Program-made: the position numbers and the translations under genes
Assembly: GCA_029781975.1 (NCBI GenBank)
Contig: JAKOVQ010000010.1
Span: 234,375-298,374, forward strand
From: Acidobacteriota bacterium
Lineage (GTDB): Bacteria; Acidobacteriota; Thermoanaerobaculia; UBA5066
DNA: 64,000 nucleotides
Direction: 5' to 3'
The notes under the pieces: model-generated
What the model was told of the DNA's origin: nothing
What the model saw: the letters and a program-made list of their open reading frames with translations, nothing else
The model's database searches: none
Part shown: one piece after another, positions 3,001 to 30,867 of the stretch
How the letters are laid out: every line of letters begins with the position of its first letter
Numbering within the stretch: position 1 is the stretch's first letter

Positions 3001-6000
3001 GCGCCAGGTCGAACGTCAGCCGGTAGTCGCCCTGCCCTCGGGTGGTCTCGGCCGCGAGGATCCAGAGCCCGCCCTCGGGAAGGACCGCAGCTTCCAGGCC
3101 CGCGTTCTTGTCGGTCCCCGAGTCGTCCTCCTTCCGCAGGTTCGCGTAGATGAAGCCGTCGGGCGCGATCAGCTCGATCTGCGGATCGAGGCTGGACGGG
3201 TCTTCCCACGGTCGGGACTCGTCGATTCGCTCGAGCCTGGCGGTGACTGCGCTGCCGGCCGGGGCGACGAAGAAGAAGAGGTTGTAGTCGCCGAGGGTGC
3301 CATCGGGGTCACCGTTCGGGAGGAATGACCCCGTGATGGTCTGTCCGGGAAGGATTCGAAGGGCCGCGTGGTGCTCCTCCGGGGTCAGCGGCGTCAGGCT
3401 CCGCTGCCGTCCCTCGATCCCGAGCCAGGTCCAGGACGTCTGCCGCCCCGCCTGGTCCACCACCCTGGCAGCGTAGTAGCCGCCGCCGAGTCCTGCGTCG
3501 AGGGCGAATCGGACTGCGCTCCCGCTCGGCTCGAGCGTCGCTGTCGCGCTCCGGGTGGGGCACTGGCCCAAACCGAGGTCGCAGAGCGGGGTGGAGACGT
3601 CGTCGAGCCGGTATACGGGACCCGCCAGGGTCACCGAGAAGCTGGTCCCGGCGGGATTCTCGAGATACGCGAAGACGTTCGCGTCCCCGGGGAGCGCCGT
3701 GGCTGGCGAGATTCCCAGAAGGGCCATCGGCGGCGGGGCCTGGATGTAGACGAGGTCCCACGCCTCGGTCCAGCTGGACCCCTTGAGATACCTAGCGGTG
3801 ATCTTCACCTCGGTCGAGGGAGCCGGGTACCCGCCCGTGATGGGGAACGACGCGCTCGTGGCCCCTGGCGCGAAGGCGACAGACGGGGGGACGATCGCGG
3901 CGACGGGGTCGGCGCTCACCAGGAGGATGGTCGCTCCGCCGGGCGGGGCCGGTCCGGTCGCGGTGATCGTCCCCGTGGTCGTCGCGAACGACGTCACGAC
4001 CTTGGGCGAGATGGCGAGCTGGGCGAGGTCGAACGCCCCTTCCGGAGCGAGGTTGACGCCGAAGAGGAAGGGGGAGTCGACGCCGATGCTGATGAGAACG
4101 TTCGAGGCCGTCTGGGAGACGTAACCGGCCTTCACGAAGGTGATCGTGTAGCGTCCCTCCGTCAGTCTCAGCGAGAAGCCGCCGCCGGATCCGGTCACCA
4201 CGCTCGTGCCGGATTCGACCGCCGTCACGGTGACCCCCTGGAGACCGAGACCGGTCGAGGCGTCCCCCACCGTGCCGTAGACGCTGCCGTAGCCGAAGAG
4301 GGCCATCCGGCCCGCGTCCGCCGTCTCGCCCCCGAACACCGAGACGGGGGACGATGTCAGGGTGTCGTAGTAGGGGGACTTGGACGCGGTGACCGTGTAA
4401 GTCCCTTGGGGAACCGTCACCCGAAAGAACCCCGAGGAGTCGGTTGTGAGGCGCTCACCGGACTGGTCGACGACGACAGTAGCCGACGCGAGACCGGTCG
4501 TCGGCTGCCTCCCGGCTATCACGACCCGCCCGATGAGGGAGCCGGTGGCGGCCAGTTCGATGTTCCCGAGGTCGAGATCCTGGCCGACTTGAGCAGCGGT
4601 GTCGAGAGAAATGTAGGGCCAGCCGTTCTTCGTAGCCGTGCAGGATCTGTACGGGCCGGGCAGGTCCCGGACGGCGAATCGGCCGTCGGCGTCCGTGACC
4701 GTCGAAGAGCTCATCGTGTAAACGGTGACACCAGGGATCGGGGTCGCGCCGACGGAACTGGTGACTCTCCCGGTCAGGGTCGAGAGCGGCTCGAGAGTTA
4801 GAACCACTCCTGAGGCGGCTTCGCCAGGCGCCAGGAGCACCCGGTTGGAGGAATCCGCTCCGAGAGCTCTCGGCTGCCAACCGTCGAGGGAGACGGTGAC
4901 GGAGACGATGCCTGGCGGCACGGCAAGGTTGAAGGCGCCGGCTGAGTCGGTCAATGCGGTCCCCCCCGTCCCGTCAGCCACGACGCTCGCCCCGACAATC
5001 GGGGCGTCCCCGTACTCGTTGAGGACCCTTCCGGATATCGTCGCGATCGGCTGGGTGAGGGTGAGCGCGGGGGCGGAGACCGCCCCGCCGGCCGTCACGA
5101 CGAGCCGATCGACACCCGCACTCGCCCAGCCGCCCATTTCAGCTGCGACCGAGTACGTCCCCGCCGGCAGGCTGAGGGTGTACTGGCCCTGTCCGTTCGT
5201 CAGTGTCGAAGTGCCGCCAGGGACCGCCAGGACCCGAGCGCCCGACGCGGGAGTGGCGCCGCCGTAGACGACCCCGGAGACCGATCCCGGCGCGGTGGAC
5301 AGCGCGGTCAACGGGACGAAGCCAGCGTTCGAGACTCCGCCGACGACGACCGGGATGGGCGACGTCTCGGCCGTCTGCCAGTTCTCCTTCAGGACCCTGA
5401 CGGCGTGGCTTCCGGCCGGCACCGAGAGGAGGAACTCACCGTATCGATCCGTCCGGGTGGAGAGGCCGGAGCCCGGGACGAGGACCTCGGCATCTTCTAC
5501 GGGCGAGCCCGTCGCCGCGTCCCTCACCAGGCCGACGACCTTCCCGCCCTGCGTGAGGGCGATCGCCCCCGTGCTCACGGTGCCCGTCTCGAGCACCGTG
5601 AACGGTGCGCTGCTCGCCGAAACCCAGCCCGGACTTGTAACCGAGACGGCGTAAGTCCCAGGGGGAACTCCCACGAACCCGAATCCGCCGCTGGAGATGC
5701 TCGTGGGCGGAACGGCGGAACTGGAGAGTGTCGCCGTGCCCGAGCCCAGACGCGTGTCGCTGGCGGCGCTCACGATGCTGCCGACGACGTCGTAGTCGGG
5801 GTTGGGTGGATCGAGATAGACGAGAATCGTACCGATCGAGACCGACTCGCCAGCCGTTACGGTCACGGGTCCTTGTGAGGTGGGTCTCTCGGGATAGCGC
5901 CACGCCTTGAGGGTCCAGGCCCCGACAGGCGCAGTGAGGGTGAAGTTGCCGCTGCCCCCTGTCAGCGTGCACCAGCCTGTTTCGTTTATACAGACCGAGC

Positions 6001-18267: not shown

Positions 18268-19845
18268 TCAGCCCGGCGAGCCGCTCGCCGCCAGGAGCGC
18301 CCGGACCGCGTCCTTCCTCACCTTCCCCATCGCGTTGCGCGGCAGGTCGCCGACGAAGGCGACCCGCCGCGGCTTCTTGTAGGGCGCGAGGCTCGCGCGG
18401 CAGAGGGAGACGAGGTCGGCCTCGAGCGCGGCTCGCGCCGCGTCCGACGTCGACGGGTCGCGAAGGACGACGGCCGCGGCGACGCATTCGCCCAGGTCGG
18501 CGTCGGGAAGGCCGACGACGGCGGCGTCCTCGACGGCGGGGTGGCCTCGGAGGACGTCCTCGACCTCGCGCGGGTAGACGTTGAAGCCGCCGGTGATGAT
18601 CAGGTCGTGCGCCCGGCCCGTCAGCGTGACGTAGCCGTCGGCGCTCCGCCAGCCGAGGTCCCCCGTCCGGAACCAGCCGTCGGGGTCGAACGCCTCGGCC
18701 GTCGCGTCGGGCCGGCGCCAGTAGCCGCGGAAGACGTTCGGGCCGCGGACCTCCACCTCTCCCACCTCCCCGTCGGGGAGCGGCGCGCGCGTCGCCCGGT
18801 CGACGATCCGCGCCTCCTGCCCCGGGAACGGCAACCCGACGGTCCCCGCGCGCCGCTCGCCGTCGTACGGGTTCGTCAGGTTCATCCCGGTCTCGGTCAT
18901 GCCGTACCGCTCGAGGATCCGCTGGCCGGCCGCCTCCTCGAACCGGCGGAAGGTTTCGGGAGAGAGCGGGGCCGAGCCCGAGACCCAGAGCCTGAGGCGC
19001 GGCAACGCGACGCCGCGCTCCCGCGCCTCGTCGAGGAGCCTCGCGTACATCGTCGGGACGCCGAAGAACATCGTCGGCGGCGGGAGGGCCCCGAGCGCCT
19101 CGAGGACCTCCGCGGCGTCGAAGCGGCGGCGGAGGTCGATCGCCCCGCCCGCGACGAGCGACCCGACGACGCCGACGCAGAGGCCGTGGACGTGGAAGAG
19201 GGGAAGGGTCAGGAGGAGGCGGTCCGCCTCCGTCCAGCGCCACGCCGCGACCACCGCCGCCGCGTTCGCGGTCAGGTTGGCGTGAGCGAGCATCGCCCCC
19301 TTCGACCGTCCCGTCGTCCCGGACGTGTAGGCGACGAGGGCGAGGTCGTCAGGGCGCGGCCCGCCGTCCGCGACCGCGGCTGACGTCGCGGCCGTTGCGG
19401 CCGTTGCTGCCCTTGCGGCCGTCGCGGCCGCTGCGCCCTCGCTCTCTTCCGCCACGCGCGGGTCGAGGATCGGGAGGAGGGGGGCGAGGCCCGCCGCTTC
19501 CGCCGCGGACGGGTCGGCCACGGCGAGGGCGGCGGCGGAGTCGGCGACGAGGTGGGTCAGCTCCCCCGCGCGGTACTGCGTGTTCAGGGGGACGACCGCC
19601 GCGCGGCGCGCGTGCGTTCCGAGGAACGCGGCGACGTACGACGGTCCGTTCGGGAGGAAGAGGGCGACCCGGTCGCCCGGGCCGACCCCGCGCTCGGCGA
19701 GGGCGGCCGCGAAGGCGAGCGCTCGGGCGCGGAGCGCACCGAACGTCAGGGTCGTCCCCTCGAACGAGAGGAACGGCGCCCCTTCGCGCGCGGCGCTCGC
19801 TCGCTCGAGAGCCTCCCAGGTCGAGGCGGGGCGGCTCCGGGTCAC
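18268..19845 (-). CDS. AMP-dependent synthetase/ligase (acyl/aryl-CoA ligase, class I adenylate-forming enzyme)
   Basis: AMP-binding P-loop YTSGTTGRSKG; YGMTETG; GWFRTGDLG; the invariant Lys in PRNAMGKVRK near the C-terminus. Confidence 0.85.
   Translation of the reverse strand: MTRSRPASTWEALERASAAREGAPFLSFEGTTLTFGALRARALAFAAALAERGVGPGDRVALFLPNGPSYVAAFLGTHARRAAVVPLNTQYRAGELTHLVADSAAALAVADPSAAEAAGLAPLLPILDPRVAEESEGAAAATAARAATAATAATSAAVADGGPRPDDLALVAYTSGTTGRSKGAMLAHANLTANAAAVVAAWRWTEADRLLLTLPLFHVHGLCVGVVGSLVAGGAIDLRRRFDAAEVLEALGALPPPTMFFGVPTMYARLLDEARERGVALPRLRLWVSGSAPLSPETFRRFEEAAGQRILERYGMTETGMNLTNPYDGERRAGTVGLPFPGQEARIVDRATRAPLPDGEVGEVEVRGPNVFRGYWRRPDATAEAFDPDGWFRTGDLGWRSADGYVTLTGRAHDLIITGGFNVYPREVEDVLRGHPAVEDAAVVGLPDADLGECVAAAVVLRDPSTSDAARAALEADLVSLCRASLAPYKKPRRVAFVGDLPRNAMGKVRKDAVRALLAASGSPG
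19388..19432. repeat. Imperfect 9-bp tandem repeat, about 5 copies (gcggccgtt / gctgccctt / gcggccgtc), inside the AMP-ligase CDS
   Basis: Seen at nucleotide level. It encodes an Ala/Thr-rich insertion, AAATAARAATAATAATSAA, immediately N-terminal to the AMP-binding P-loop. Confidence 0.6.
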
Positions 19846-22109: not shown

Positions 22110-22802
22110 TCAGCGGCCGAGCTTCTTCTCCAGGCGCCGCGCCGCCTTCTTCGCGGCCTCCAGGATCCCCTCCCTCTCGGGCCCCGTCTCCTCGTCCTCG
22201 GAGCGCCTCAGGGTGGCGGTCCCGGTGACGTCCTCCGTCAGGCGCTGGCGCCCGGTGACCTCCTCCACCGCCCGGAGCGACGCGGTGCAGGAGACCGAGA
22301 CGTCGACGATGGTCCGCTGGTACGGGTACCCGTCAGGGGTCGTGTCCCTCATCGTGAAGGAGTGCGCCTTCACCTGACAGGGGGCGAGGTCGACCGAGAG
22401 GAGGTACTCCCCGGGCCACTCCGCGCGGAACGCCCGTGCGGCGGAGCCGTCGGGATCGGCCGCGAGGACGCCGAGCCGCGCTCCCGCGAGGCGCGCGTCG
22501 ACGATGGAGACCTTCTGCCTGTCGCTCGCCTCCGACTGGAGGTGGGAGATGAACGCGTCGAGGTCGTCCTCGTCGCCCTGGGCGTCGACGAGGACGACGC
22601 GGACGGGGCCGGAGGCGGCGCGGGTCGGCGCGGGCGCGGGCGTCGCAGGAGCGGGCGTCGCGGGAGCCGAGGTCGCGGCGGGCGGGGCCGTGGGAGCCGG
22701 GGTGGGGGGAGGGGTCGCCGCGAGGGCGGCGGAGCCGACGAGGGCGGCGAACGAGGTGAACCACGCCACGACGGCCAGCGGGGGTCGGCGGGTCGGCTTC
22801 AT
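22110..22802 (-). CDS. Hypothetical secreted protein with a Pro/Thr/Ala-rich linker
   Basis: Signal peptide MKPTRRPPLAVVAWFTSFAALVGSAALA, then ATPPPTPAPTAPPAATSAPATPAPATPAPAPT, then a globular C-terminus. No recognisable motif. Confidence 0.45.
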   Translation of the reverse strand: MKPTRRPPLAVVAWFTSFAALVGSAALAATPPPTPAPTAPPAATSAPATPAPATPAPAPTRAASGPVRVVLVDAQGDEDDLDAFISHLQSEASDRQKVSIVDARLAGARLGVLAADPDGSAARAFRAEWPGEYLLSVDLAPCQVKAHSFTMRDTTPDGYPYQRTIVDVSVSCTASLRAVEEVTGRQRLTEDVTGTATLRRSEDEETGPEREGILEAAKKAARRLEKKLGR

Positions 22803-22851: not shown

Positions 22852-23985
22852 TCACCGGGCTCTCTCGCCGTGCGCCCCCCAGCGCGGCGACGGGAAGCCC
22901 TCGCCGAGGAGCTCCCCCGACGCGCCGAACCTCACGACGTAGGTGAACGGGTCGATCGCCCCCGCGAGGTGCCCGAACCTCAGGTCGCGCAGCTCCACCG
23001 TGACCCCTCCGTCGGGACGGGGCTCGGAGCGGGCCGCCGGGAAGCGCGCGAACCGTCCGAAGACCCCCTTCTCCCCCTCCACGAGGGCCCGCATCGAGAG
23101 GGGGCCGTCGGCCTTCGCGACGTCCTGCGGCCGGAGGGCGTCGGGCGAGGCGAAGAGGCCGTCGAGGTGGCGGAGGGCCGCGAGCGGCCCGGCCTCGCCG
23201 GAGGTCAGCCGGGAGAGGGAGTCGACGCCCCCCGCGACGCGCGGCGGAGAGGCCGTCCGGGAGAGGTCGACGAAGGCGGAGCGGACCCGCGCGCCGTCGT
23301 CCGAGAGGAGGAGCCAGCGGAACGGCGAGAGGGGCTGGGGGATGGCGGCCCGCGCCACGGCCCCCGGGAGCGCGATCGTCTCCCCCACGGCGAGGGCCCG
23401 GCCGTGCTGGACTCCGCAGAACGCGATGTATGCCGTGGCCGCCAGCGCGCCGGCCGTCGCGGCGAGGCGGGCGGAGCGCGGCCCCTGGCGGCGCCCCGCG
23501 GCTCGCGTGGCGAGGAGGCCGAGCGCGAGGAGGCCCGACAGGACGAGGTCGACGATGAAGACCCAGTCCAGGGAGTACCGCTCCCACGAGAGCGGCGAAA
23601 AGAACATCGTCCCCCACGACGTGATCCAGTCGAGGAGGACGTGGGACGCCAGCCCGACCGCCGAGACGAGCGAGAGACGGAGGAACGCCGCCCTTCGCCC
23701 TGGCGGCCCGCTCCCCCCCCGGGCGACGCCCCACGTCGCGACCACGCCGATCAGGAGCGCCCAGAGCGGCAGGAGGACGAACGAGTGCGAGAGCCCCCGG
23801 TGGTGGGTGATGTAGAAGTCCGCCGAGAAGGGGGAGAGGAGGGCGTCGAGGTCGGGCGCCATCGCCGCCGCGAAGCCGGTCCAGGCCTCGCGGCGGCGGA
23901 GCGCCGCCGCGAGCCCCTCGTCCCGGGGGGGCGGGAGCGCGCGCGCCAGGAGGGCGCCGGCCAGGCCGTGGGTGAGGGTATCCAT
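22852..23985 (-). CDS. Membrane-bound metal-dependent hydrolase (DUF457/YdjM-like) with a C-terminal extension
   Basis: The N-terminus MDTLTHGLAGALLARAL is typical of DUF457; several TM segments. The start was taken at the ATG at 23985, the complement of cat at 23983-23985. The longer track ORF, starting at 24540, adds a low-complexity GVG-rich sequence. Confidence 0.6.
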   Translation of the reverse strand: MDTLTHGLAGALLARALPPPRDEGLAAALRRREAWTGFAAAMAPDLDALLSPFSADFYITHHRGLSHSFVLLPLWALLIGVVATWGVARGGSGPPGRRAAFLRLSLVSAVGLASHVLLDWITSWGTMFFSPLSWERYSLDWVFIVDLVLSGLLALGLLATRAAGRRQGPRSARLAATAGALAATAYIAFCGVQHGRALAVGETIALPGAVARAAIPQPLSPFRWLLLSDDGARVRSAFVDLSRTASPPRVAGGVDSLSRLTSGEAGPLAALRHLDGLFASPDALRPQDVAKADGPLSMRALVEGEKGVFGRFARFPAARSEPRPDGGVTVELRDLRFGHLAGAIDPFTYVVRFGASGELLGEGFPSPRWGAHGERAR

Positions 23986-24022
23986 CGTCTCCCGGTCGCG
24001 GACGATACGCCCGGCTATCCTC

Positions 24023-26053
24023 ATGCGGATGCCGACACCGCTCCGATTCGCCGCCGGCCCCTTCGCCCTCGCCCTCCTCGCCGTCGTCGGCCTGGCCGGC
24101 GCTCGGGTCGCGCGCGGAGAAGAGCCGGCGGCGCCCGCGCCTTCGGGCGCGCCGACGGAGACGCCCGCGCCGACGCCCACCCCGACGCCGACCCCGGCAC
24201 CGACGCCAGCTTCGATACCGGCCCAGACGCCGACTCCGGCCCCGCCCGCGACGCCCGTCCCGCCCGTGCCGGCCCTGACGCCCGTGACCGCCGAAGTCGT
24301 CGCGGTCGCGACCCGGCTCGGCAGGGAGACCGAGGCGACGACGGTGAGGACCATCACGCGGGCCGAGATCGAGCACCTCCCCGTCCGGTCGGTCCCCGAG
24401 CTCCTCGCCACGCTGCCCGGCCTCGACGTGAGGCGCCGAGGCGCCGGGGGGGTCCAGGCCGACGTCGGGATCCGCGGCGCCGACTTCAACGGGACGCTCG
24501 TCCTCGTCGACGGCGAGCCGATGAACGACCCGCAGACCAACCACCACGCCTTCGACCTCGACGTCCCGCTCGACGCCGTCGAGCGGGTCGAGGTCCTATC
24601 CGGCGCTTCGTCGGCGCTCTACGGGACGGACGCGGTCGGCGGGGTCGTGAACATCGTGACCCGCGGAGCGAACCTCGGCCGCGCGCGGGCGCAGCTGGAG
24701 GGGCGGTACGCCCACGGGACCCAGTCGCGCGACGAGGGGGGGCTCCGGATCGCCTCGAAGCTGGGCGACGTCTTCACCGTCGCGGCCGACGCGTGGCGCG
24801 CCGAGTCGAGCGGCTTCCGCGACGACACCGAGTACGCGAACGACTCGCTCCACGCCACCCTGCGCGCCGACACGGGGGCAGGCCCGATCACCCTCTCGGC
24901 GGGGAGCGCGACGCGCGACTTCGGCGCCTACGCGTTCTACGGCACGCTCTACCCCGACCAGAAGGAGAAGACGCGGGTGAGGACCGCCCGCCTCGCGGCC
25001 GAGCTCCGCGCCGGGGCGTGGACCCTCGCCCCGTCGGTCTCCCTCCGCGACCACCACGACGACTTCGTCCTCGACCGGGCGAACCCGTCCTTCTACCGGA
25101 ACGTCACCGACACGAGCACCCTCACGGCCCGGGCGGTCGCCTCGCGTCCCCTCCTCGGCGGGACGCTCGCGTTCGGGGTCGAGGGGGGGAGCGACAGCGT
25201 CGACTCCACCGGCCTCGGAAGCCACGACCGCTCGCACGCGGCGCTCTTCTTCGAGGCGGGAGGGGCGTTCGCCCCGTCCCGGCCGGAGAAGGGGGGCTTC
25301 CGCGTGGGGCTGCGGGGAGATCGCTGGGACGACTACGGCTCCCGCCTCTCGCCGATGGCGGCGCTGTGGGCCTCGCCCGCCCGCGGGCTGAGGCTCCGCG
25401 CCTCCGTCGGGACCGCCTTCCGGGTCCCCACCTACACCGAGCTCTACTACCGGGACCCCCAGAGCGTCGGCAACCCGGACCTCTCCCCGGAGAGGGCGGT
25501 CAACATCGAGGGGGGCGTCACGTTCGACGCCGGCCCCGTCCGCCTCGACGCGGCGCTCTTCAAGCGCAGGGGACGCGACCTGATCGACTTCGTCCGCTCC
25601 TCGCCGTCGGAGCCGGCCGTCGCGCGGAACGTGAGGCAGGCGGACGTCTGGGGGATCGAGGCGACCGCCGAGCTCCTGCCCGAGCGGCTGGCCCGGACGC
25701 CGCTGACGCGCCTCGCGCTGGGCGCCACCTACCTCTTCCCCGACCTCGGCGGCCTCGAGGGGCTCACCGGCCGGTACGTCCTCGACCCGCCGCACGTCAA
25801 GTGGGACCTCCTGGCGGGAGGACGCCTCGTGCCGCGCCTCAACGCCCTCGCGCGCCTCTCGTACCTCTCGCGTCCGAGCTGGAGCGATTCCGTCGTCCTC
25901 CTCGACGCGAGGCTCGGGTTCGACCTCCTGGAGGGGAACGTCCTCGAGACGTACGTCGAAGGAGAGAACCTCGGCGGCGTCACGTACGAGGAGCGGCCCG
26001 GCGTCCCGCTCCCGGGCCGGACCGTCGCCGGCGGCTTCCGCTTCACCTGGTAG
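24023..26053 (+). CDS. TonB-dependent outer-membrane receptor with a Pro/Thr-rich N-terminal linker
   Basis: Signal peptide MRMPTPLRFAAGPFALALLAVVGLAGARVARG. A PT-rich tract TPAPTPTPTPTPAPTP… precedes plug-domain motifs (ITRAEIEHLPVRSVPELLATLPGLDV, GVGGVVNIVTR). The C-terminus ends in an aromatic residue: …GGFRFTW. Confidence 0.8.
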   Translation: MRMPTPLRFAAGPFALALLAVVGLAGARVARGEEPAAPAPSGAPTETPAPTPTPTPTPAPTPASIPAQTPTPAPPATPVPPVPALTPVTAEVVAVATRLGRETEATTVRTITRAEIEHLPVRSVPELLATLPGLDVRRRGAGGVQADVGIRGADFNGTLVLVDGEPMNDPQTNHHAFDLDVPLDAVERVEVLSGASSALYGTDAVGGVVNIVTRGANLGRARAQLEGRYAHGTQSRDEGGLRIASKLGDVFTVAADAWRAESSGFRDDTEYANDSLHATLRADTGAGPITLSAGSATRDFGAYAFYGTLYPDQKEKTRVRTARLAAELRAGAWTLAPSVSLRDHHDDFVLDRANPSFYRNVTDTSTLTARAVASRPLLGGTLAFGVEGGSDSVDSTGLGSHDRSHAALFFEAGGAFAPSRPEKGGFRVGLRGDRWDDYGSRLSPMAALWASPARGLRLRASVGTAFRVPTYTELYYRDPQSVGNPDLSPERAVNIEGGVTFDAGPVRLDAALFKRRGRDLIDFVRSSPSEPAVARNVRQADVWGIEATAELLPERLARTPLTRLALGATYLFPDLGGLEGLTGRYVLDPPHVKWDLLAGGRLVPRLNALARLSYLSRPSWSDSVVLLDARLGFDLLEGNVLETYVEGENLGGVTYEERPGVPLPGRTVAGGFRFTW

Positions 26054-26844: not shown

Positions 26845-27285
26845 TCAGCGGCGCGGCGCGCCCCCCCCGAGGTCGATGAGCCGGATCCCGGCCCGCTCGG
26901 CGTACTCGAGGATCCGCGGCTCGCGGTAGAACTCGCCGAACGAGATCGCCGAGAGCCCCGCGTTCGCGATCAGCTTGAAGCAGGGCCAGCAGGGGGAGGC
27001 GGTCGTGTAGATCTCGCCCCCCTCGATCCTCACCCCGTTCATCGCGGCCTGGAGGATGGCGTTCGCCTCGGCGTGGACCGTGGCGATGCAGTGCCCCTCC
27101 TCCATCAGGCAGCCGACCTCGTCGCAGTGGGGAAGCCCCCGGAGCGACCCGTTGTAGCCGGTGGAGAGGATCCGGCGGTCCCTGACGATCACCGCCCCGA
27201 CGTGCTTCCGCGGGCAGGTGGAGCGGCTCGCCACCTCGGCGGCGATGTTCATGAAGTAGCGGTTCCAGTCGACGCGCTCGGCCAC
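26845..27285 (-). CDS. dCMP/CMP deaminase (zinc-binding, ComEB-like)
   Basis: Zinc-binding motifs HAEANAI and PCWPC. The N-terminus VDWNRYFMNIAAEVASRSTCPRKHVGAVIV is typical of dCMP deaminases. The start was placed at the GTG at 27285 with GGAG 5 nt upstream. The upstream part of the track ORF is low-complexity. Confidence 0.7.
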   Translation of the reverse strand: MAERVDWNRYFMNIAAEVASRSTCPRKHVGAVIVRDRRILSTGYNGSLRGLPHCDEVGCLMEEGHCIATVHAEANAILQAAMNGVRIEGGEIYTTASPCWPCFKLIANAGLSAISFGEFYREPRILEYAERAGIRLIDLGGGAPRR

Positions 27286-27358
27286 GGCTCCATTATCGGG
27301 GGAGGGGCTGCCTCCGCCGAGGGCGATTCCGGGGGGCCGCCCCGTGTACCATCGACGC

Positions 27359-28573
27359 ATGCCCCAGAGATCCGCCGTGGTCACCGGCCTGGGGGCGGTG
27401 ACCTCCCTCGGCAACGACCTCGCGAGCTCCTGGGCCGGCCTGGTGGCCGGCCGGTGCGGGATCGGGCCCATCACGGTCTTCGACCCCACGGGCTTCCGGA
27501 CGAACCTCGCCGCGGAGGTCCGCGCGCTCCCCGACGCCTGGATCGACGGCCGCCTCAGGCGCCGCCTCTCCCGGAGCGACGTCCTGGGGCTGACGGCGGC
27601 CCGCGAGGCGCTCGCCGGCTCCGGGATCGACCTCTCCGCCGAGGACCCGGCCCGGATCGCCGTCGTCCTGGGAGGGGGCGTCTCGGGGCTCCTCGACGCC
27701 GAGAACTACTACCGCGACCTCCTCTCGAAGGGCTTCCGGCGTGCCCGGCCGACGAGGGCCCTGAACCACCCCCCCGACCAGACGACCGACCGGATCGGCG
27801 AGCTCTGGGGCTTCTGCGGCCCGCGGGCCACCATCACGACCGCCTGCTCCTCCTCCGCCACCGCGATCGGCTACGCGGCCGACCTGATCCGCCACGGCAT
27901 CGCCGACGTCGTCGTCACCGGCGGCGCCGACTCGCTGGGGCGCCTCACCCACGGCGGCTTCAACGCCCTGCGCGCCGTCGACCCCGACCCCTGCCGGCCG
28001 TTCGACCGGAACCGGAAGGGGCTGACGATCGGCGAGGCGGCCGGGATCCTCGTCCTCGAGGAGGAGGAGCGCGCGCACAAGCGCGGCGCCCCGGTCCGCG
28101 CCCGGTTCCTCGGGTACGGCGTCACCGCCGACGCCCACCACATGACCCAGCCGGAGCCGAGCGGCGTCGCCGGCGCGCGGACGATCACCGCCTGCCTGAA
28201 GGCGGCCCGCCTCTCCCCGGAGGACGTCGACTACGTCAACGCCCACGGGACAGCCACCCAGCAGAACGACTCGGCCGAGACCGCGTCGATCAAGCTCGCG
28301 CTCGGCGAGAGGGCCCACCGCGTCCCGGTCTCCTCCTCGAAATCCATGCTCGGCCACTGCCTCTGCTCGGCCGGCGGGATCGAGGCGGTCGTCACCGTCC
28401 TCACCGTCGAGACGGGGATCCTCCCCCCGACGATCCACTACGAGGAGCCCGACCCCGAGTGCGACCTCGACTACGTCCCGAACACCGCCCGCGAGGCGCG
28501 CGTCCGCGTGGCCCTCTCGAACTCCTTCGCCTTCGGCGGGAACTCCACCGTCGTCGCGTTCGGAAGGGCCTGA
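27359..28573 (+). CDS. Beta-ketoacyl synthase (KS-alpha, FabF-like) with the Cys-His-His triad
   Basis: Active-site Cys in TITTACSSSATAIGYAAD; His in HHMTQPEP and VNAHGTAT; GHCLCSAGGIE; N-terminus AVVTGLGAVTSLG. ATG at 27359. Confidence 0.85.
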   Translation: MPQRSAVVTGLGAVTSLGNDLASSWAGLVAGRCGIGPITVFDPTGFRTNLAAEVRALPDAWIDGRLRRRLSRSDVLGLTAAREALAGSGIDLSAEDPARIAVVLGGGVSGLLDAENYYRDLLSKGFRRARPTRALNHPPDQTTDRIGELWGFCGPRATITTACSSSATAIGYAADLIRHGIADVVVTGGADSLGRLTHGGFNALRAVDPDPCRPFDRNRKGLTIGEAAGILVLEEEERAHKRGAPVRARFLGYGVTADAHHMTQPEPSGVAGARTITACLKAARLSPEDVDYVNAHGTATQQNDSAETASIKLALGERAHRVPVSSSKSMLGHCLCSAGGIEAVVTVLTVETGILPPTIHYEEPDPECDLDYVPNTAREARVRVALSNSFAFGGNSTVVAFGRA

Positions 28574-28598
28574 CGATGCGCGTCGCCCAGGAGCGCCG

Positions 28599-29726
28599 GT
28601 GAAGGCGCCCGTCGTCACCGGGGTCGGGGCCGTCACCCCGCTGGGGCGCGACATCCGGACGACGCGCGACCGCCTCGCCGCCGGGGCGTGCGCCATCGCC
28701 GACGTCGAGGCGCCGGAGGTCCCCGTCCGGCCGCTCCGCTCCCCCGCGGCCCGGATCGGGACCTTCACGACGGAGCCGGAGATGCCCCGCTCGAAGGCCC
28801 GCCGCCTCGACCGCGGCAGCCAGTACGCCGTCGTCGCCATCCGCCAGTGCCTCGCCGACGCCGGCTACGACGTGAAGGGGCGCGAGGACGACATGGGGAT
28901 CCTCCTCGGCTCGGGCTCCGCCGGAGCCGGCCCGCTCACCGACCTCGAGCGCCAGATGGCGGTCGAGTCGCCCGAGGCGGCCTCCCCGTTCCTCTTCCCG
29001 TACACCGTCGCCAACGCGCCGGCCTCGCTCGCGGCGATCGAGCTCGGCGTCCGCGGCCCGAACGTCACCATCACGCAGAAGGACCCGGCGGGGCTGAACG
29101 CCGTCTTCTACGCCCGGATGCTCCTGGCCGACGGGCGCGCCAGCGCCCTCGTGGCCGGCGGGGCCGACGAGTGGAACCTCACCTACCACCTCGCCTACGA
29201 GCGGCTCCACGCCACCCGGACTCAGAGCACGCCGGGGTACGCCCTCTCGGAGGGATGCGCGGTCCTCCTCCTCGAGGACGAAGACTCCGCGCGCGAGCGG
29301 GGCGCCCGGGTCCTCGCCCGCCTCGCCTCGATCGTCTCCACCGGCCGCCCCGTCTCTCCCCACCGGCGACGGACGCGAGCGACCGACGTGGCCGAGACGC
29401 TCGGCGAGGCGCTCGTCGACGCGGGGATCGAGCCGGACGCCGTCGGGCGCTTCGACCCGCGGCGCGTCGGGCTCCTCCACCTCTCGGCGAACGGCGTCCC
29501 CTGGATGGACGAGGCGGAGCGCAAGGCGGTCGAGCTGCTCTTCGGCCCGCACCCGCCGCCCCTCCGGACCATCAAGCACCAGATCGGCGAGAACCCGGTC
29601 GTCGGCGCGCTCCAGCTCGCCCTCTCCGCCCTGGCGCTGGGAGAGGACCCCTCGCTCGGCGCCGCCGTCGTCAACGTCCTCGGCGCGGGCGGCAACCAGA
29701 TCACCGCCGTCCTGACGGCGCCGTGA
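28599..29726 (+). CDS. KS-beta / chain-length-factor-like ketosynthase paralog, with the active-site Cys replaced by Gln
   Basis: A KS-like fold (VVTGVGAVTPLG…), but the position equivalent to the catalytic Cys reads VTITQKDPAGLNA (Gln). It lies 25 nt downstream of the KS gene, in the typical KS/CLF tandem arrangement. Confidence 0.7.
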   Translation: MKAPVVTGVGAVTPLGRDIRTTRDRLAAGACAIADVEAPEVPVRPLRSPAARIGTFTTEPEMPRSKARRLDRGSQYAVVAIRQCLADAGYDVKGREDDMGILLGSGSAGAGPLTDLERQMAVESPEAASPFLFPYTVANAPASLAAIELGVRGPNVTITQKDPAGLNAVFYARMLLADGRASALVAGGADEWNLTYHLAYERLHATRTQSTPGYALSEGCAVLLLEDEDSARERGARVLARLASIVSTGRPVSPHRRRTRATDVAETLGEALVDAGIEPDAVGRFDPRRVGLLHLSANGVPWMDEAERKAVELLFGPHPPPLRTIKHQIGENPVVGALQLALSALALGEDPSLGAAVVNVLGAGGNQITAVLTAP

Positions 29727-29782
29727 CGGCGTGACCATGCCGTGACCATGCCGTGACCACGCCGTGACCACGCCGTGACGAC
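29720..29782. repeat. Tandem 11-bp repeat array, 5-6 copies of gccgtgaccay, in the intergenic space between the CLF-like and thioesterase genes
   Basis: The array reads gccgtgacg-gcgtgaccat-gccgtgaccat-gccgtgaccac-gccgtgaccac-gccgtgacgac. The CLF stop TGA (29724-29726) lies inside the first unit. Every unit contains GTGA. Confidence 0.8.
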
Positions 29783-29816
29783 GCCATCCCTTCCGGCGAA
29801 GCCGCGCCCCTTCCGG

Positions 29817-30245
29817 ATGGAGGTCGACGTCCGCTTCCCGGAGGTCGACTCCTACGGCGTCGTCTGGCACGGCCACTACGTCCTCTACTTCGAGATCGTG
29901 AGGGACGCCCTCTGCACGGCCGGCGGCTTCTCCCCCTCCCAGGGGCTCGCCCTCGGCTACAAGGTCCCGATCACACGGTTCGAGGCCCAGGTGAGGCGCC
30001 CCGCCCTCCTCGACGACCGGCTCGAGCTCTCGTGCGTCCTCCGCCCCCCCGAGACCGCCAAGCTCGAGATGGAGTACGAGGTCCGCCGCGCGGCGACGCG
30101 CGAGCTCCTGGCGACCGGCTTCACCCAGCAGGTCTTCCTCAACCCGCAGGGCGAGCTGATGCTGACCTTCCCGATGCAGGTCCGCGGCCTCGTGGAGCGG
30201 GTCCTCGCCTTCCACCGGGGCGAGGCCGAGCTCGGCCGCGGCTGA
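29817..30245 (+). CDS. Hotdog-fold acyl-CoA/ACP thioesterase (4HBT/YbgC family)
   Basis: MEVDVRFPEVDSYGVVWHGHYVLYFE is the classic 4HBT N-terminus, with catalytic Asp and His context. The track ORF starts at the GTG at 29775, inside the repeat array. ATG at 29817 was preferred. Confidence 0.7.
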   Translation: MEVDVRFPEVDSYGVVWHGHYVLYFEIVRDALCTAGGFSPSQGLALGYKVPITRFEAQVRRPALLDDRLELSCVLRPPETAKLEMEYEVRRAATRELLATGFTQQVFLNPQGELMLTFPMQVRGLVERVLAFHRGEAELGRG

Positions 30246-30249
30246 CCGC

Positions 30250-30867
30250 TCAGCCCGCCTTCCGCGCCGTCGCCAGGAAGATCGGGTAGTCGCGATCGCC
30301 CTTCCGGGTGACGGTCGCCGTCTCGACGGCCACGTCGACGAACCCCGCAGCCCTCAGGAGCGCGGCGATACCGTCCCGCTCGAACCCGAGGTGGACGACG
30401 CCGGCCGGGTCCTCGTGGAACGTCCCGTCCTCCGTGTCGAGGTCGGCGAGGGCGACGCGGCCGCCGGGGCGCAGGTGCTCGCGGAACGCCGCGAAGAGCG
30501 GCGCCAGCTCCTTCACGTGGTGGAGCGCCATGCTGCTGACGACGAGGTCGTAGCTCCCCGGCACCGCGAAGGGAGCGTCGGCGGGAAGGAGGACGGCGCT
30601 CACCCCCTCGAGCCCCTGCTCACGAACCTTCGTCCGGAAGACGTCGAGCATCCCGGACGACGTGTCGACCCCCGTGACGCTCCTGACGAGCGGCCCGAGC
30701 GCGAGCGAGACGAGGCCGGTGCCGCAGCCGAAGTCGAGGACGTCGATGTCGGCCGGAAGGCCGCACCGCGCCACCATCGCCTCCGCGACCGCCCGCGCCA
30801 TCTTCACCCGGCGCCCCTCGCCGTCCCACGTCGCCGCCGCCTGGTCGAACCGCTCGGTTCCCGACAT
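30250..30867 (-). CDS. Class I SAM-dependent methyltransferase
   Basis: SAM motif VLDFGCGTGLVSLAL; acidic loop VVSSMALHH; RPGGRVALADL. The ATG at 30867 lies 2 nt after the stop of the upstream VOC gene. Confidence 0.75.
   Translation of the reverse strand: MSGTERFDQAAATWDGEGRRVKMARAVAEAMVARCGLPADIDVLDFGCGTGLVSLALGPLVRSVTGVDTSSGMLDVFRTKVREQGLEGVSAVLLPADAPFAVPGSYDLVVSSMALHHVKELAPLFAAFREHLRPGGRVALADLDTEDGTFHEDPAGVVHLGFERDGIAALLRAAGFVDVAVETATVTRKGDRDYPIFLATARKAG

Follow-up and report, generated by a model that had tools for sequence, protein, structure and literature searches.

A tandemly amplified GTGA stop/start junction between a CLF-like gene and a thioesterase gene in an Acidobacteriota bacterium: a candidate variable-number relay for translational coupling

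Results

The locus and its flanking genes

We analyzed a 64-kb stretch of DNA (hereafter, the window), with a G+C content of 72%, in which a short tandem array lies at the junction of two co-directional genes. The main features of the locus are the following:

27344 to 28573, plus strand: FabF-like ketosynthase (KS), the first gene of a three-gene cassette, start codon uncertain (Pfam ketoacyl-synt N and C domains)
28599 to 29726, plus strand: CLF-like, non-catalytic KS paralogue (Pfam ketoacyl-synt N domain only; GC3 = 0.98)
29720 to 29785, plus strand: tandem array, the amplified stop/start junction (TRF, direct reading, comparison with 117 simple-overlap junctions, shuffle test)
29775 to 30245, plus strand: thioesterase of the 4HBT / YbgC-FadM type, 156 aa, its GTG start placed by homology in the last repeat unit (Pfam 4HBT_2, TIGR00051)

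The KS exceeds the score cutoff of NCBIfam NF005589 and has the catalytic Cys, His and His residues. In the alignment with this adjacent KS, the second protein is missing the Cys and both His, which upholds the label "CLF-like" of the first-pass annotation; the protein that it called a thioesterase is a hotdog protein, according to Pfam and TIGR00051. The ω values of the thioesterase gene are 0.17-0.29 among the three array-bearing lineages described below, showing continued purifying selection and suggesting that the protein is still needed and made. An antisense ORF on the minus strand (28401-30215) was discarded as a high-GC shadow ORF because its GC3 phase matches that of the plus-strand genes.

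Sequence and extent of the array

TRF reported a single array at 29726-29785, with a period of 11, 5.5 copies, 91% matches, no indels and a score of 92. Among arrays of four or more copies whose period is no multiple of 3, the highest score reached in 100 dinucleotide-preserving shuffles was 58; thus, the 11-bp array of approximately 5.5 copies noted in the first pass is real, and it is unusual against the base composition of the window. The 10- and 11-mers GCCGTGACCA(Y) have no occurrence outside the array on either strand of the 64 kb, and the 11-mer is therefore not a common word there. Sequence and copy number are the same in an independent Logan assembly, L001 (SRR15686344).

Read directly, the units are GCCGTGACGG / (G)CGTGACCAT / GCCGTGACCAT / GCCGTGACCAC / GCCGTGACCAC / GCCGTGACGAC, that is, GCC-GTGA-Cnn, with perfectly periodic tracts of approximately 30 nt. 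Every unit carries GTGA, as had been noted, and the six motifs begin at 29723, 29731, 29742, 29753, 29764 and 29775, so that they are spaced by 8, 11, 11, 11 and 11 nt, each of which equals 2 mod 3. The earlier description of regular 11-bp units holds for four of these intervals and fails for the first one, which is 8 nt. The CLF-like stop codon (TGA, 29724-29726) does lie inside the first unit. The stretch given in the first pass runs from 29720 to 29816; the array itself ends at approximately 29785, and the remainder (29786-29816) is thioesterase coding sequence and not spacer.

Start codon of the thioesterase and initiation signals

It should be noted that the gene callers disagree on the thioesterase start: ATG 29817 was chosen for the window and for one of its two closest relatives (L154), and the GTG start for the other (L155). 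The N-terminus of the thioesterase, MTTPSLPAKPRPFR-M-EVDVRFPEVD, aligns with MT..APRPFR-V-E/D..VRFPEVD of the relatives, and these aligned N-termini begin at the overlap codon.

29817 to 29819, plus strand: internal Met codon of the thioesterase, aligned with Val in the relatives

This Met falls in the conserved block PRPFR-V/M-E/D-x-D/E-VRFPEVD. The ATG that was taken as the start exists but is an internal Met codon, and homology shows the start to be GTG 29775, inside the last unit; we have corrected the annotation in this way. Because this GTG sits in the last unit, gain or loss of units leaves the immediate upstream context of the start unchanged.

Neither a sigma-70-like promoter nor a terminator was found in a scan of 27000-30600, and none of the candidate thioesterase starts, including GTG 29775 and ATG 29817, is preceded by GGAG, GAGG or AGGA in its 20 upstream nt. 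Given also that the start lies inside the last unit, the suggestion that the repeats form a spacer with the RBS or promoter of the thioesterase gene was not borne out.

A chain of overlapping mini-ORFs

Tracing of start and stop codons through the array yielded five mini-ORFs of 3-4 codons:

29723 to 29734, plus strand: mini-ORF 1 (GTG ACG GCG TGA; MTA*)
29731 to 29745, plus strand: mini-ORF 2 (MTMP*), its start overlapping the stop of mini-ORF 1
29742 to 29756, plus strand: mini-ORF 3 (MTMP*)
29753 to 29767, plus strand: mini-ORF 4 (MTTP*)
29764 to 29778, plus strand: mini-ORF 5 (MTTP*), its TGA overlapping the thioesterase GTG

GTGA motifs link each mini-ORF by overlap to its neighbors and, at the ends of the chain, to the stop of the CLF-like gene and to the thioesterase start. 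The GTG of mini-ORF 1, which overlaps the CLF stop, is at the ancestral position of the thioesterase start. The direct distance from the CLF stop to the thioesterase start is +48 nt. The chain exists because all GTGA intervals (8 or 11) equal 2 mod 3; the geometry is automatic once a GTGA unit has such a period, so that 8 and 11 are the only independent "choices" that the window adds. In 200 simulated sequences of 64 kb, a chain of five steps never arose, and no further start/stop chain was found in the 64-kb window. Two-step chains are frequent by chance in high-GC DNA, and for this reason isolated chains elsewhere in the loci were not counted as evidence.

Copy number in close relatives

A cluster look-up with the 142-aa form of the thioesterase recovered this protein and two near-identical members. 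The lineage is represented by three genomes in the databases searched, namely, those of the window, L154 and L155. L154 and L155 derive from samples other than that of the window, and the flanks of the three arrays are 93-97.5% identical and free of gaps. The copy number varies by whole units among these close relatives: there are four 11-nt steps in the window, one in L154 and two in L155, with GTGA intervals of [8,11,11,11,11], [8,11] and [8,11,11], respectively. The expectation that related strains differ in copy number was thus confirmed, and the differences fit slipped-strand gain or loss of whole units. Across the three relatives, 3-4 of the 7 non-GTGA positions of the internal units differ and GTGA and the period are kept; at dS of 0.07-0.16, such retention of internal GTGA is not improbable in itself.

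We traced the chain explicitly in all three genomes and found it intact in each. Because all observed copy-number states keep the start/stop chain, unit changes are not expected to act as an on/off frame switch, and classical phase variation, as proposed in the first pass, is not supported. A change in copy number may have, at most, a graded effect on the amount of thioesterase per CLF.

Origin of the array and junctions across the family

The CLF-like stop and the thioesterase start form a -4 overlap in 117 of approximately 133 evaluable Acidobacteriota loci (63 ATGA, 51 GTGA and 3 TTGA). With this 4-nt overlap on one mRNA, the two genes are, judging from their arrangement, plainly co-translated in the relatives. 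The junction of the closest clade, ...gcgccgTGAcggcg..., is identical to the first unit in the window, and the thioesterase of the closest relatives begins GTGACGGCG at the overlap. This comparison shows the array unit to be the GTGA stop/start junction, apparently amplified in tandem in place. The motif of the array is absent from approximately 130 orthologous junctions. A metagenome scan with the thioesterase gave no same-species contigs (the best identity was 72%) and added further junctions, and in a large homology search the identities fell from 99% directly to 71%; for this reason, the origin of the array is not traceable beyond these three genomes.

Other duplications of the junction were found in the family, one of 8 nt (L024) and one of 26 nt (two copies in six loci and three in L075). 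All of these equal 2 mod 3 and keep the start/stop chain, and no junction duplication of the 1 mod 3 class was seen in the family. Altogether, there are approximately four independent duplication events, all of them 2 mod 3. Microhomology spanning the -4 junction already favors 2 mod 3, with a probability of 0.42-0.45 rather than 0.33, which weakens this test for selection on the mod-3 class; on that basis, the neutral probability is only ~0.03.

Predicted RNA structure

29714 to 29788, plus strand: predicted hairpin of the array RNA (fold z = -2.6 with 151 nt and -4.0 with 131 nt)

In the predicted hairpin, GTG 29775 belongs to the 3' arm and pairs with bases that immediately follow the CLF stop; the hairpin is expected because each unit contains CACG.C.CGUG. 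Folding of the relatives gave z = -3.1 for L155 and z = +0.24 for L154; the hairpin was therefore rejected as a conserved feature, since L154 has no significant structure. A comparison to Rfam 15 returned only sub-threshold matches to miRNA precursors (22-28 bits versus gathering scores of 67-84), attributable to a generic hairpin.

Discussion

We suggest, with a probability of approximately 0.55 for the combined reading, that a lineage-specific amplification by replication slippage turned the ancestral junction into a variable-number relay that keeps translation of the thioesterase coupled to that of the CLF-like gene. A ribosome ending the CLF-like gene would re-initiate at the overlapping GTG, and it would then be passed stepwise through the mini-ORFs to the thioesterase by termination-reinitiation, so that coupling would survive the 48-nt separation. 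Under this model, the copy number would drift by whole units, and it would at most tune the thioesterase per CLF with no on/off switching. Coupling by termination-reinitiation loses 40-80% at +14 nt and is abolished at ~20-38 nt (PMC10666635); because simple reinitiation is reported to fail at such distances, a gap of 48 nt would uncouple the genes unless it was bridged. Delivery of ribosomes by short ORFs has been described, including by MIRUs with -4 spacing (PMC12548453, PMC4473831), and minigenes are known to act in cis and in a distance-dependent manner (PMC8708949). Conversely, ribosomes translating ORFs of only 3-4 codons readily suffer peptidyl-tRNA drop-off (PMC8708949), and five successive re-initiations at GTG codons lacking an SD sequence could be very inefficient. 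We infer, and only infer, that ribosomes use the relay and that copy number has a quantitative effect. A stronger version, in which selection maintains the array as a "ribosome relay" tunable by copy number and stepwise loss of ribosomes lets slippage set the thioesterase:CLF ratio like a rheostat, appears doubtful.

If neutral slippage alone produced the array, its copies serve no function and translation of the thioesterase begins independently at GTG 29775 or ATG 29817, an account that we consider possible, if somewhat unlikely. The free drift of copy number among close relatives is expected under it, the chain follows automatically from a 2 mod 3 period that microhomology geometry favors, two-step chains are common by chance, and the retention of GTGA at dS 0.07-0.16 is statistically not compelling. 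However, independent initiation looks unfavorable, since neither candidate start has an SD sequence, no promoter was found, and GTG 29775 is predicted to lie within a stem. Moreover, conservation of the -4 overlap in 117 of approximately 133 loci argues that coupling matters, the odd first interval is 8 and neither 9 nor 10, and the 8- and 26-nt duplications of the family also keep the chain, with no 1 mod 3 class seen. The stem itself could be the functional element: a stem-loop of approximately 75 nt might hide the thioesterase start until a ribosome terminating on the CLF-like gene melts the 5' arm, or it might protect the upstream mRNA from 3' decay, in which case the mini-ORFs would be irrelevant. 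Consistent with this are the strong hairpin predicted in the window, the hairpin predicted in L155, the pairing of GTG 29775 just 3' of the CLF stop, and the status of RNA unfolding as an accepted coupling model, which works at a spacing of ~+50 nt (PMC12548453). Nevertheless, coupling is negatively correlated with RNA structure immediately after a stop codon (PMC12548453), the nearest relative, L154, has no significant structure, and the hairpin scales with copy number, as follows from the CACG/CGTG palindrome of the unit, rather than being conserved. Such a stem-loop could exist alongside the relay; as a replacement for the relay, it seems quite improbable.

The tandem array, its perfectly periodic tracts of ~30 nt and its different copy numbers in close relatives are all reminiscent of a classical contingency locus, in which slipped-strand changes of units would alter the spacing of the RBS or promoter and switch the thioesterase on and off at high frequency. 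This is very unlikely: the thioesterase start falls within the last unit, no promoter, terminator or SD sequence was found, all observed copy-number states are geometrically equivalent, and the units are imperfect and few compared to known contingency tracts. The locus belongs to an environmental member of Acidobacteriota, and its operon is a cassette of the lipid or polyketide type rather than one for a surface antigen. The array could also be read as an operator for a winged-helix regulator of the OmpR/PhoB type, with a GTGAC pentamer repeated once per helical turn (11 bp). The 11-bp period, the conserved 5-mer and the variable 6-mer spacers are shared by the window, L154 and L155, and the pattern resembles the direct-repeat operators of such regulators. 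We attach next to no weight to this possibility, since the first spacing measures 8 bp and the repeated motif is nothing other than the stop/start overlap, is absent from approximately 130 orthologous loci and is located within an operon with no promoter found. In addition, the neighboring response regulator has a PilZ output domain and not a DNA-binding one, and the 8- and 26-nt duplications of the family obey the mod-3 rule but do not match helical phasing. Boxes of the actinobacterial regulators PhoP, MtrA, GlnR and SARP likewise have an 11-bp period and GTCAC-like cores; this candidate was dropped because the host belongs to Acidobacteriota, because one spacing in the array is 8 bp, and because the repeated sequence is simply the stop/start overlap.

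Termination-reinitiation coupling is generally taken to require an overlap or a gap of only a few nucleotides, and longer relays via minimal ORFs have been considered mainly for MIRUs. The locus provides a natural test series for the same gene pair, with 0 (relatives), 2 (L154), 3 (L155) and 5 (window) relay steps, and it suggests an evolutionary rule, namely, that duplications of such junctions should keep the start/stop chain. If the stronger version of the relay is true, duplications of -4 junctions would be tolerated only in the 2 mod 3 class and would read out the dependence of a gene pair on termination-reinitiation; the array would then be the first "micro-MIRU" known outside mycobacteria, self-derived in its case, and would document in nature that reinitiation can proceed serially via at least five minimal ORFs. 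For repeats at gene junctions in general, a phase-variation switch of an RBS or promoter should not be the default reading.

Comparison with known systems

The ancestral state of the family corresponds to canonical termination-reinitiation at ATGA/GTGA overlaps (Huber et al. 2019, 2023), and every step of the putative relay retains the same -4 spacing. Pairs coupled in this way are co-directional, with a -4 or -1 overlap or a stop-to-start gap of no more than ~10 nt. The distinction is that canonical coupling uses a single overlap between full-length genes, whereas there are five overlaps here, with ORFs of 3-4 codons spanning +48 nt. Cis-acting minigenes and uORFs, such as mg2 of axe-txe and the two-codon minigene of LEE1 (PMC8708949), are very short ORFs as well; their translation in cis enhances that of the gene that follows, and the effect depends strongly on the stop-to-start distance. 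Unlike the mini-ORFs of the array, which are tandem, variable in number, SD-less and fed by a full-length gene, they are single, driven by an SD sequence and located in leaders. Similar to slipped-strand contingency repeats, the array consists of short tandem repeats that gain or lose whole units; in contrast to them, it is outside of long ORFs except for terminal codons, is not between promoter elements, and does not affect the spacing between RBS and start.

[quoted passage not shown] 1997, as cited in PMC12548453 and PMC4473831). Like MIRUs, the units lie between co-directional operon genes in the same orientation (here, the CLF-like and thioesterase genes, both on the plus strand), and their number varies between strains in the manner of a VNTR, as in the 4, 1 and 2 eleven-nt steps of the three genomes. 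In the summaries given by the citing papers, MIRUs are a dispersed, apparently mobile family of 40-100 bp at many mycobacterial loci and are described without dyad symmetry; by contrast, the unit here is 11 nt long (3-4 codons), appears to be derived in place, occurs nowhere else in the 64-kb window, and has a CACG/CGTG dyad, with which the array is predicted to fold into a long hairpin, and the host is a member of Acidobacteriota and not a mycobacterium. By analogy, the array looks like a small, home-grown version of a MIRU rather than an on/off switch.

Gene cassette and surroundings

Genes of the cassette were defined by GC3 phasing and Pfam/NCBIfam matches:

27344-28573, + strand, FabF-like KS
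28599-29726, + strand, CLF-like KS paralogue, without the catalytic Cys/His/His
end at 30245, + strand, 4HBT / YbgC-FadM-type thioesterase

On its upstream side the cassette is bordered by a divergent deaminase, on its downstream side by a convergent methyltransferase. Taken at full length, the ORFs of the deaminase (26845-27489, - strand) and the KS share 146 nt at their 5' ends; therefore, at least one start codon lies further in, and the divergent promoter region is short. No ACP, KR or DH gene was found among the immediate neighbors examined (upstream deaminase; downstream methyltransferase, glyoxalase and AHSA1), and similarity of the cassette to cispentacin AmcF/AmcG was weak, under cutoffs. 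The order KS, CLF-like, thioesterase (window 27344-30245) is kept in over 130 loci of Thermoanaerobaculia/Holophagales-type Acidobacteriota (related loci L002-L153). The neighbor genes, including a TonB-dependent receptor and a PilZ response regulator, and 80 related genome loci place the window among uncultured Acidobacteriota of the Thermoanaerobaculia/Holophagales group.

Array and chain geometry

The G+C content of the window is 72.4%. At 29726-29785, TRF detects an array with an 11-nt period and 5.5 copies (score 92; 91% matches, without indels). It ranks second in the window by score and is the sole strong array with a period that is not a multiple of 3. Direct reading gives the units GCCGTGACGG / (G)CGTGACCAT / GCCGTGACCAT / GCCGTGACCAC / GCCGTGACCAC / GCCGTGACGAC. 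The maximum score in 100 dinucleotide-preserving shuffles was 58 (period not divisible by 3, at least 4 copies), compared to 92 observed. The Logan assembly L001 was made independently, from SRR15686344, a sample that is probably of the same population as the window, and is identical to the window across 4,216 nt, array included; thus, the array is not an assembler artefact. These results confirm the array described in the first-pass annotation, and the search for its 11-mer elsewhere, proposed there, found no further occurrence of the array's 10- and 11-mers within the 64 kb window. Other tandem repeats in the window (24150-24271, 22620-22722 and 19363-19439, with periods 6/18/42, 15/30 and 9/18/27, all multiples of 3) sit in or beside coding regions, the one at 24150-24271 within the N-terminal portion of ORF 23972-26053 (TonB-dependent receptor), and are probably low-complexity linker repeats.

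The GTGA in each unit, noted earlier, is indeed present: six motifs start at 29723, 29731, 29742, 29753, 29764 and 29775, with intervals of 8, 11, 11, 11 and 11, all 2 mod 3. Because start and stop in GTGA are offset by one base, intervals of this class make every TGA an in-frame stop for the preceding GTG. The resulting chain runs from the CLF stop/GTG through MTA*, MTMP*, MTMP*, MTTP* and MTTP* to the thioesterase, and the last two mini-ORFs (MTTP) are a copy of the initial four codons of the thioesterase. A five-step chain was found in 0 of 200 simulated 64-kb sequences. Two-step chains are frequent by chance in such sequences, so that short chains by themselves mean little. The window contains no further start/stop chain, and hence nothing in it points to a dispersed repeat family. 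It should be noted that the last codons of the CLF-like gene read Ala-Pro-stop (GCG CCR TGA C), in the window (29721-29726) as well as in most closer relatives, and that four of the mini-ORFs, out of five, likewise close with Pro-UGA-C. In E. coli, termination is slow or leaky at Pro-stop and at UGA-C, and such contexts might favor reinitiation here.

Thioesterase start codon

The thioesterase of relatives, read from the overlap codon, begins MT..(A/P)PRPFR-V-(E/D)x(D/E)VRFPEVD, and that of the window, read from GTG 29775, begins MTTPSLPAKPRPFR-M-EVDVRFPEVD. The ATG at 29817, taken as the start in the first-pass annotation, is an internal Met, since it is aligned with the Val of relatives; N-terminal homology identifies the GTG within the last repeat unit (29775) as the true start. 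Public annotations disagree on this point: a 142-aa form starting at the internal ATG is given for the window contig (29817; L001 1307-1735) and for the close relative L154 (386-814), and a 156-aa form starting at the last-unit GTG for the close relative L155 (52-522). Homology supports the 156-aa form.

Copy number in close relatives

Two further members of the thioesterase 90%-identity cluster come from other samples, L154 (ENA ERZ27237554) and L155 (Logan SRR6490213). Their flanks are 96-97.5% and 93% identical to the window, respectively, and both the CLF 3' end and the thioesterase gene align gap-free. The array intervals are [8,11] in L154, [8,11,11] in L155 and [8,11,11,11,11] in the window; therefore, close relatives differ in copy number by whole 11-nt units, which answers the comparison across related strains proposed in the earlier note. 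The 8-nt first step is common to the three genomes, and the chain is unbroken in all of them. Internal units GTGACGCCGCA and GTGATCGACCC differ from GTGACCAYGCC at 3-4 of 7 non-GTGA positions, with all GTGAs and intervals retained. Omega of the thioesterase is 0.17-0.29 among the three lineages (dS 0.07-0.16), indicating purifying selection and thus that the thioesterase is still being made. The copy-number comparison rests on these three genomes, which are the whole dataset because nothing between 99% and 71% identity turned up among the 5.8 billion protein clusters searched.

Origin of the repeat unit

CLF-thioesterase junctions were extracted from 153 related loci in genome and metagenome collections. 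In 117 of about 133 evaluable junctions, the CLF stop and the thioesterase start simply overlap by 4 nt (63 ATGA, 51 GTGA and 3 TTGA; for example, ACGGCGCC-ATGA-CG). Conservation of this -4 overlap across the family indicates that coupling is important to the gene pair. In the clade nearest to the window the junction reads ...gcgccgTGAcggcg..., the same as the first unit of the window. Sequence comparison thus identifies the unit GCC-GTGA-Cnn as a tandem amplification of the coupling junction itself. The overlap is lost, and replaced by other arrangements, in L151 (~353-380; TGA-GGAGCGC-ATG, a 7-nt spacer bearing an SD) and in L082/L083/L150 (CTGA without an overlapping start; GTG 4 nt 3' of the stop). 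The otherwise universal CLF/thioesterase adjacency is interrupted by an extra 1.1-2.2 kb in L008 (4099-5249), L031 (4105-5236) and L049 (2443-4653).

Further junction duplications occur among the relatives: one of 8 nt in L024 (mini-ORF MKP*), and one of 26 nt (mini-ORF MSAAGLEAA*) in a separate clade, with two copies each in L054, L120, L128, L130, L131 and L153 and three copies in L075 (about 4086-4141). Each 26-nt copy has a perfect GGAGG directly upstream of its start. Within this clade, the spacer copy is conserved as well as the adjoining coding sequence. The duplication is missing from neighboring NJ-tree branches (L143, L148, L055 and L132), and was therefore gained or lost more than once.

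Alternative explanations

The amplified junction could be a neutral by-product, with the thioesterase initiated independently; we consider this a serious rival, although less likely than a coupling-preserving relay. The 8- and 26-nt duplications are all 2 mod 3 and keep the chain, and the junctions of related loci showed no duplication in the 0 or 1 mod 3 classes. Since microhomologies spanning the -4 junction are already biased to 2 mod 3 (0.42-0.45), the neutral probability of four events all being in this class is ~0.03, and the pattern is suggestive, not decisive, evidence against neutrality. Phase variation through RBS or promoter spacing, proposed in the first-pass annotation, is not supported: no sigma-70-like promoter or terminator was found in 27000-30600, and the 20 nt upstream of each candidate thioesterase start contain no GGAG/GAGG/AGGA. 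The array thus lacks the position by which contingency loci are defined. A protein-binding operator of 11-bp direct repeats is likewise disfavored by the 8-bp interval, the missing promoter, the absence of the array from orthologous loci, and the 8- and 26-nt sizes of other junction duplications.

Since each unit contains CACG.C.CGUG, the array is predicted to fold as a hairpin of ~75 nt (29714-29788; z = -2.6 and -4.0), in which GTG 29775 is paired with bases directly 3' of the CLF stop. Such a fold would be compatible with a published model, coupling by RNA unfolding (PMC12548453). However, L155 has the hairpin (z = -3.1) and L154 does not (z = +0.24); it thus follows copy number and is not the conserved feature. 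Rfam gave only sub-threshold miRNA-hairpin matches.

Proposed coupling and comparison with known systems

In native gene pairs, termination-reinitiation coupling falls by 40-80% at +14 nt and is almost abolished at ~20-38 nt (PMC10666635). The CLF stop and thioesterase start of the window are 48 nt apart, with no SD and the start in a predicted stem. The most economical reading, we infer, is that the amplified junction would be tolerated as coupling would be preserved through a relay of -4 overlaps, and that copy number would have a graded effect at most. The array series is a neat natural set for testing serial reinitiation, and junction duplications may obey a general rule.

MIRUs are described as in-operon units of variable copy number comprising small ORFs, whose ends overlap contiguous ORFs at -4 spacing (PMC12548453, PMC4473831), and the array shares this logic, its -4 overlapping small ORFs inside an operon and its variable copy number. 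The array is not a MIRU, however: its unit is 11 nt, compared to 40-100 bp for MIRUs, arose locally out of the junction, shows no dispersal within the window and contains a short dyad, and the host is an Acidobacteriota. Its mini-ORFs are also related to cis-acting minigenes, which promote downstream translation in a distance-dependent manner (PMC8708949).
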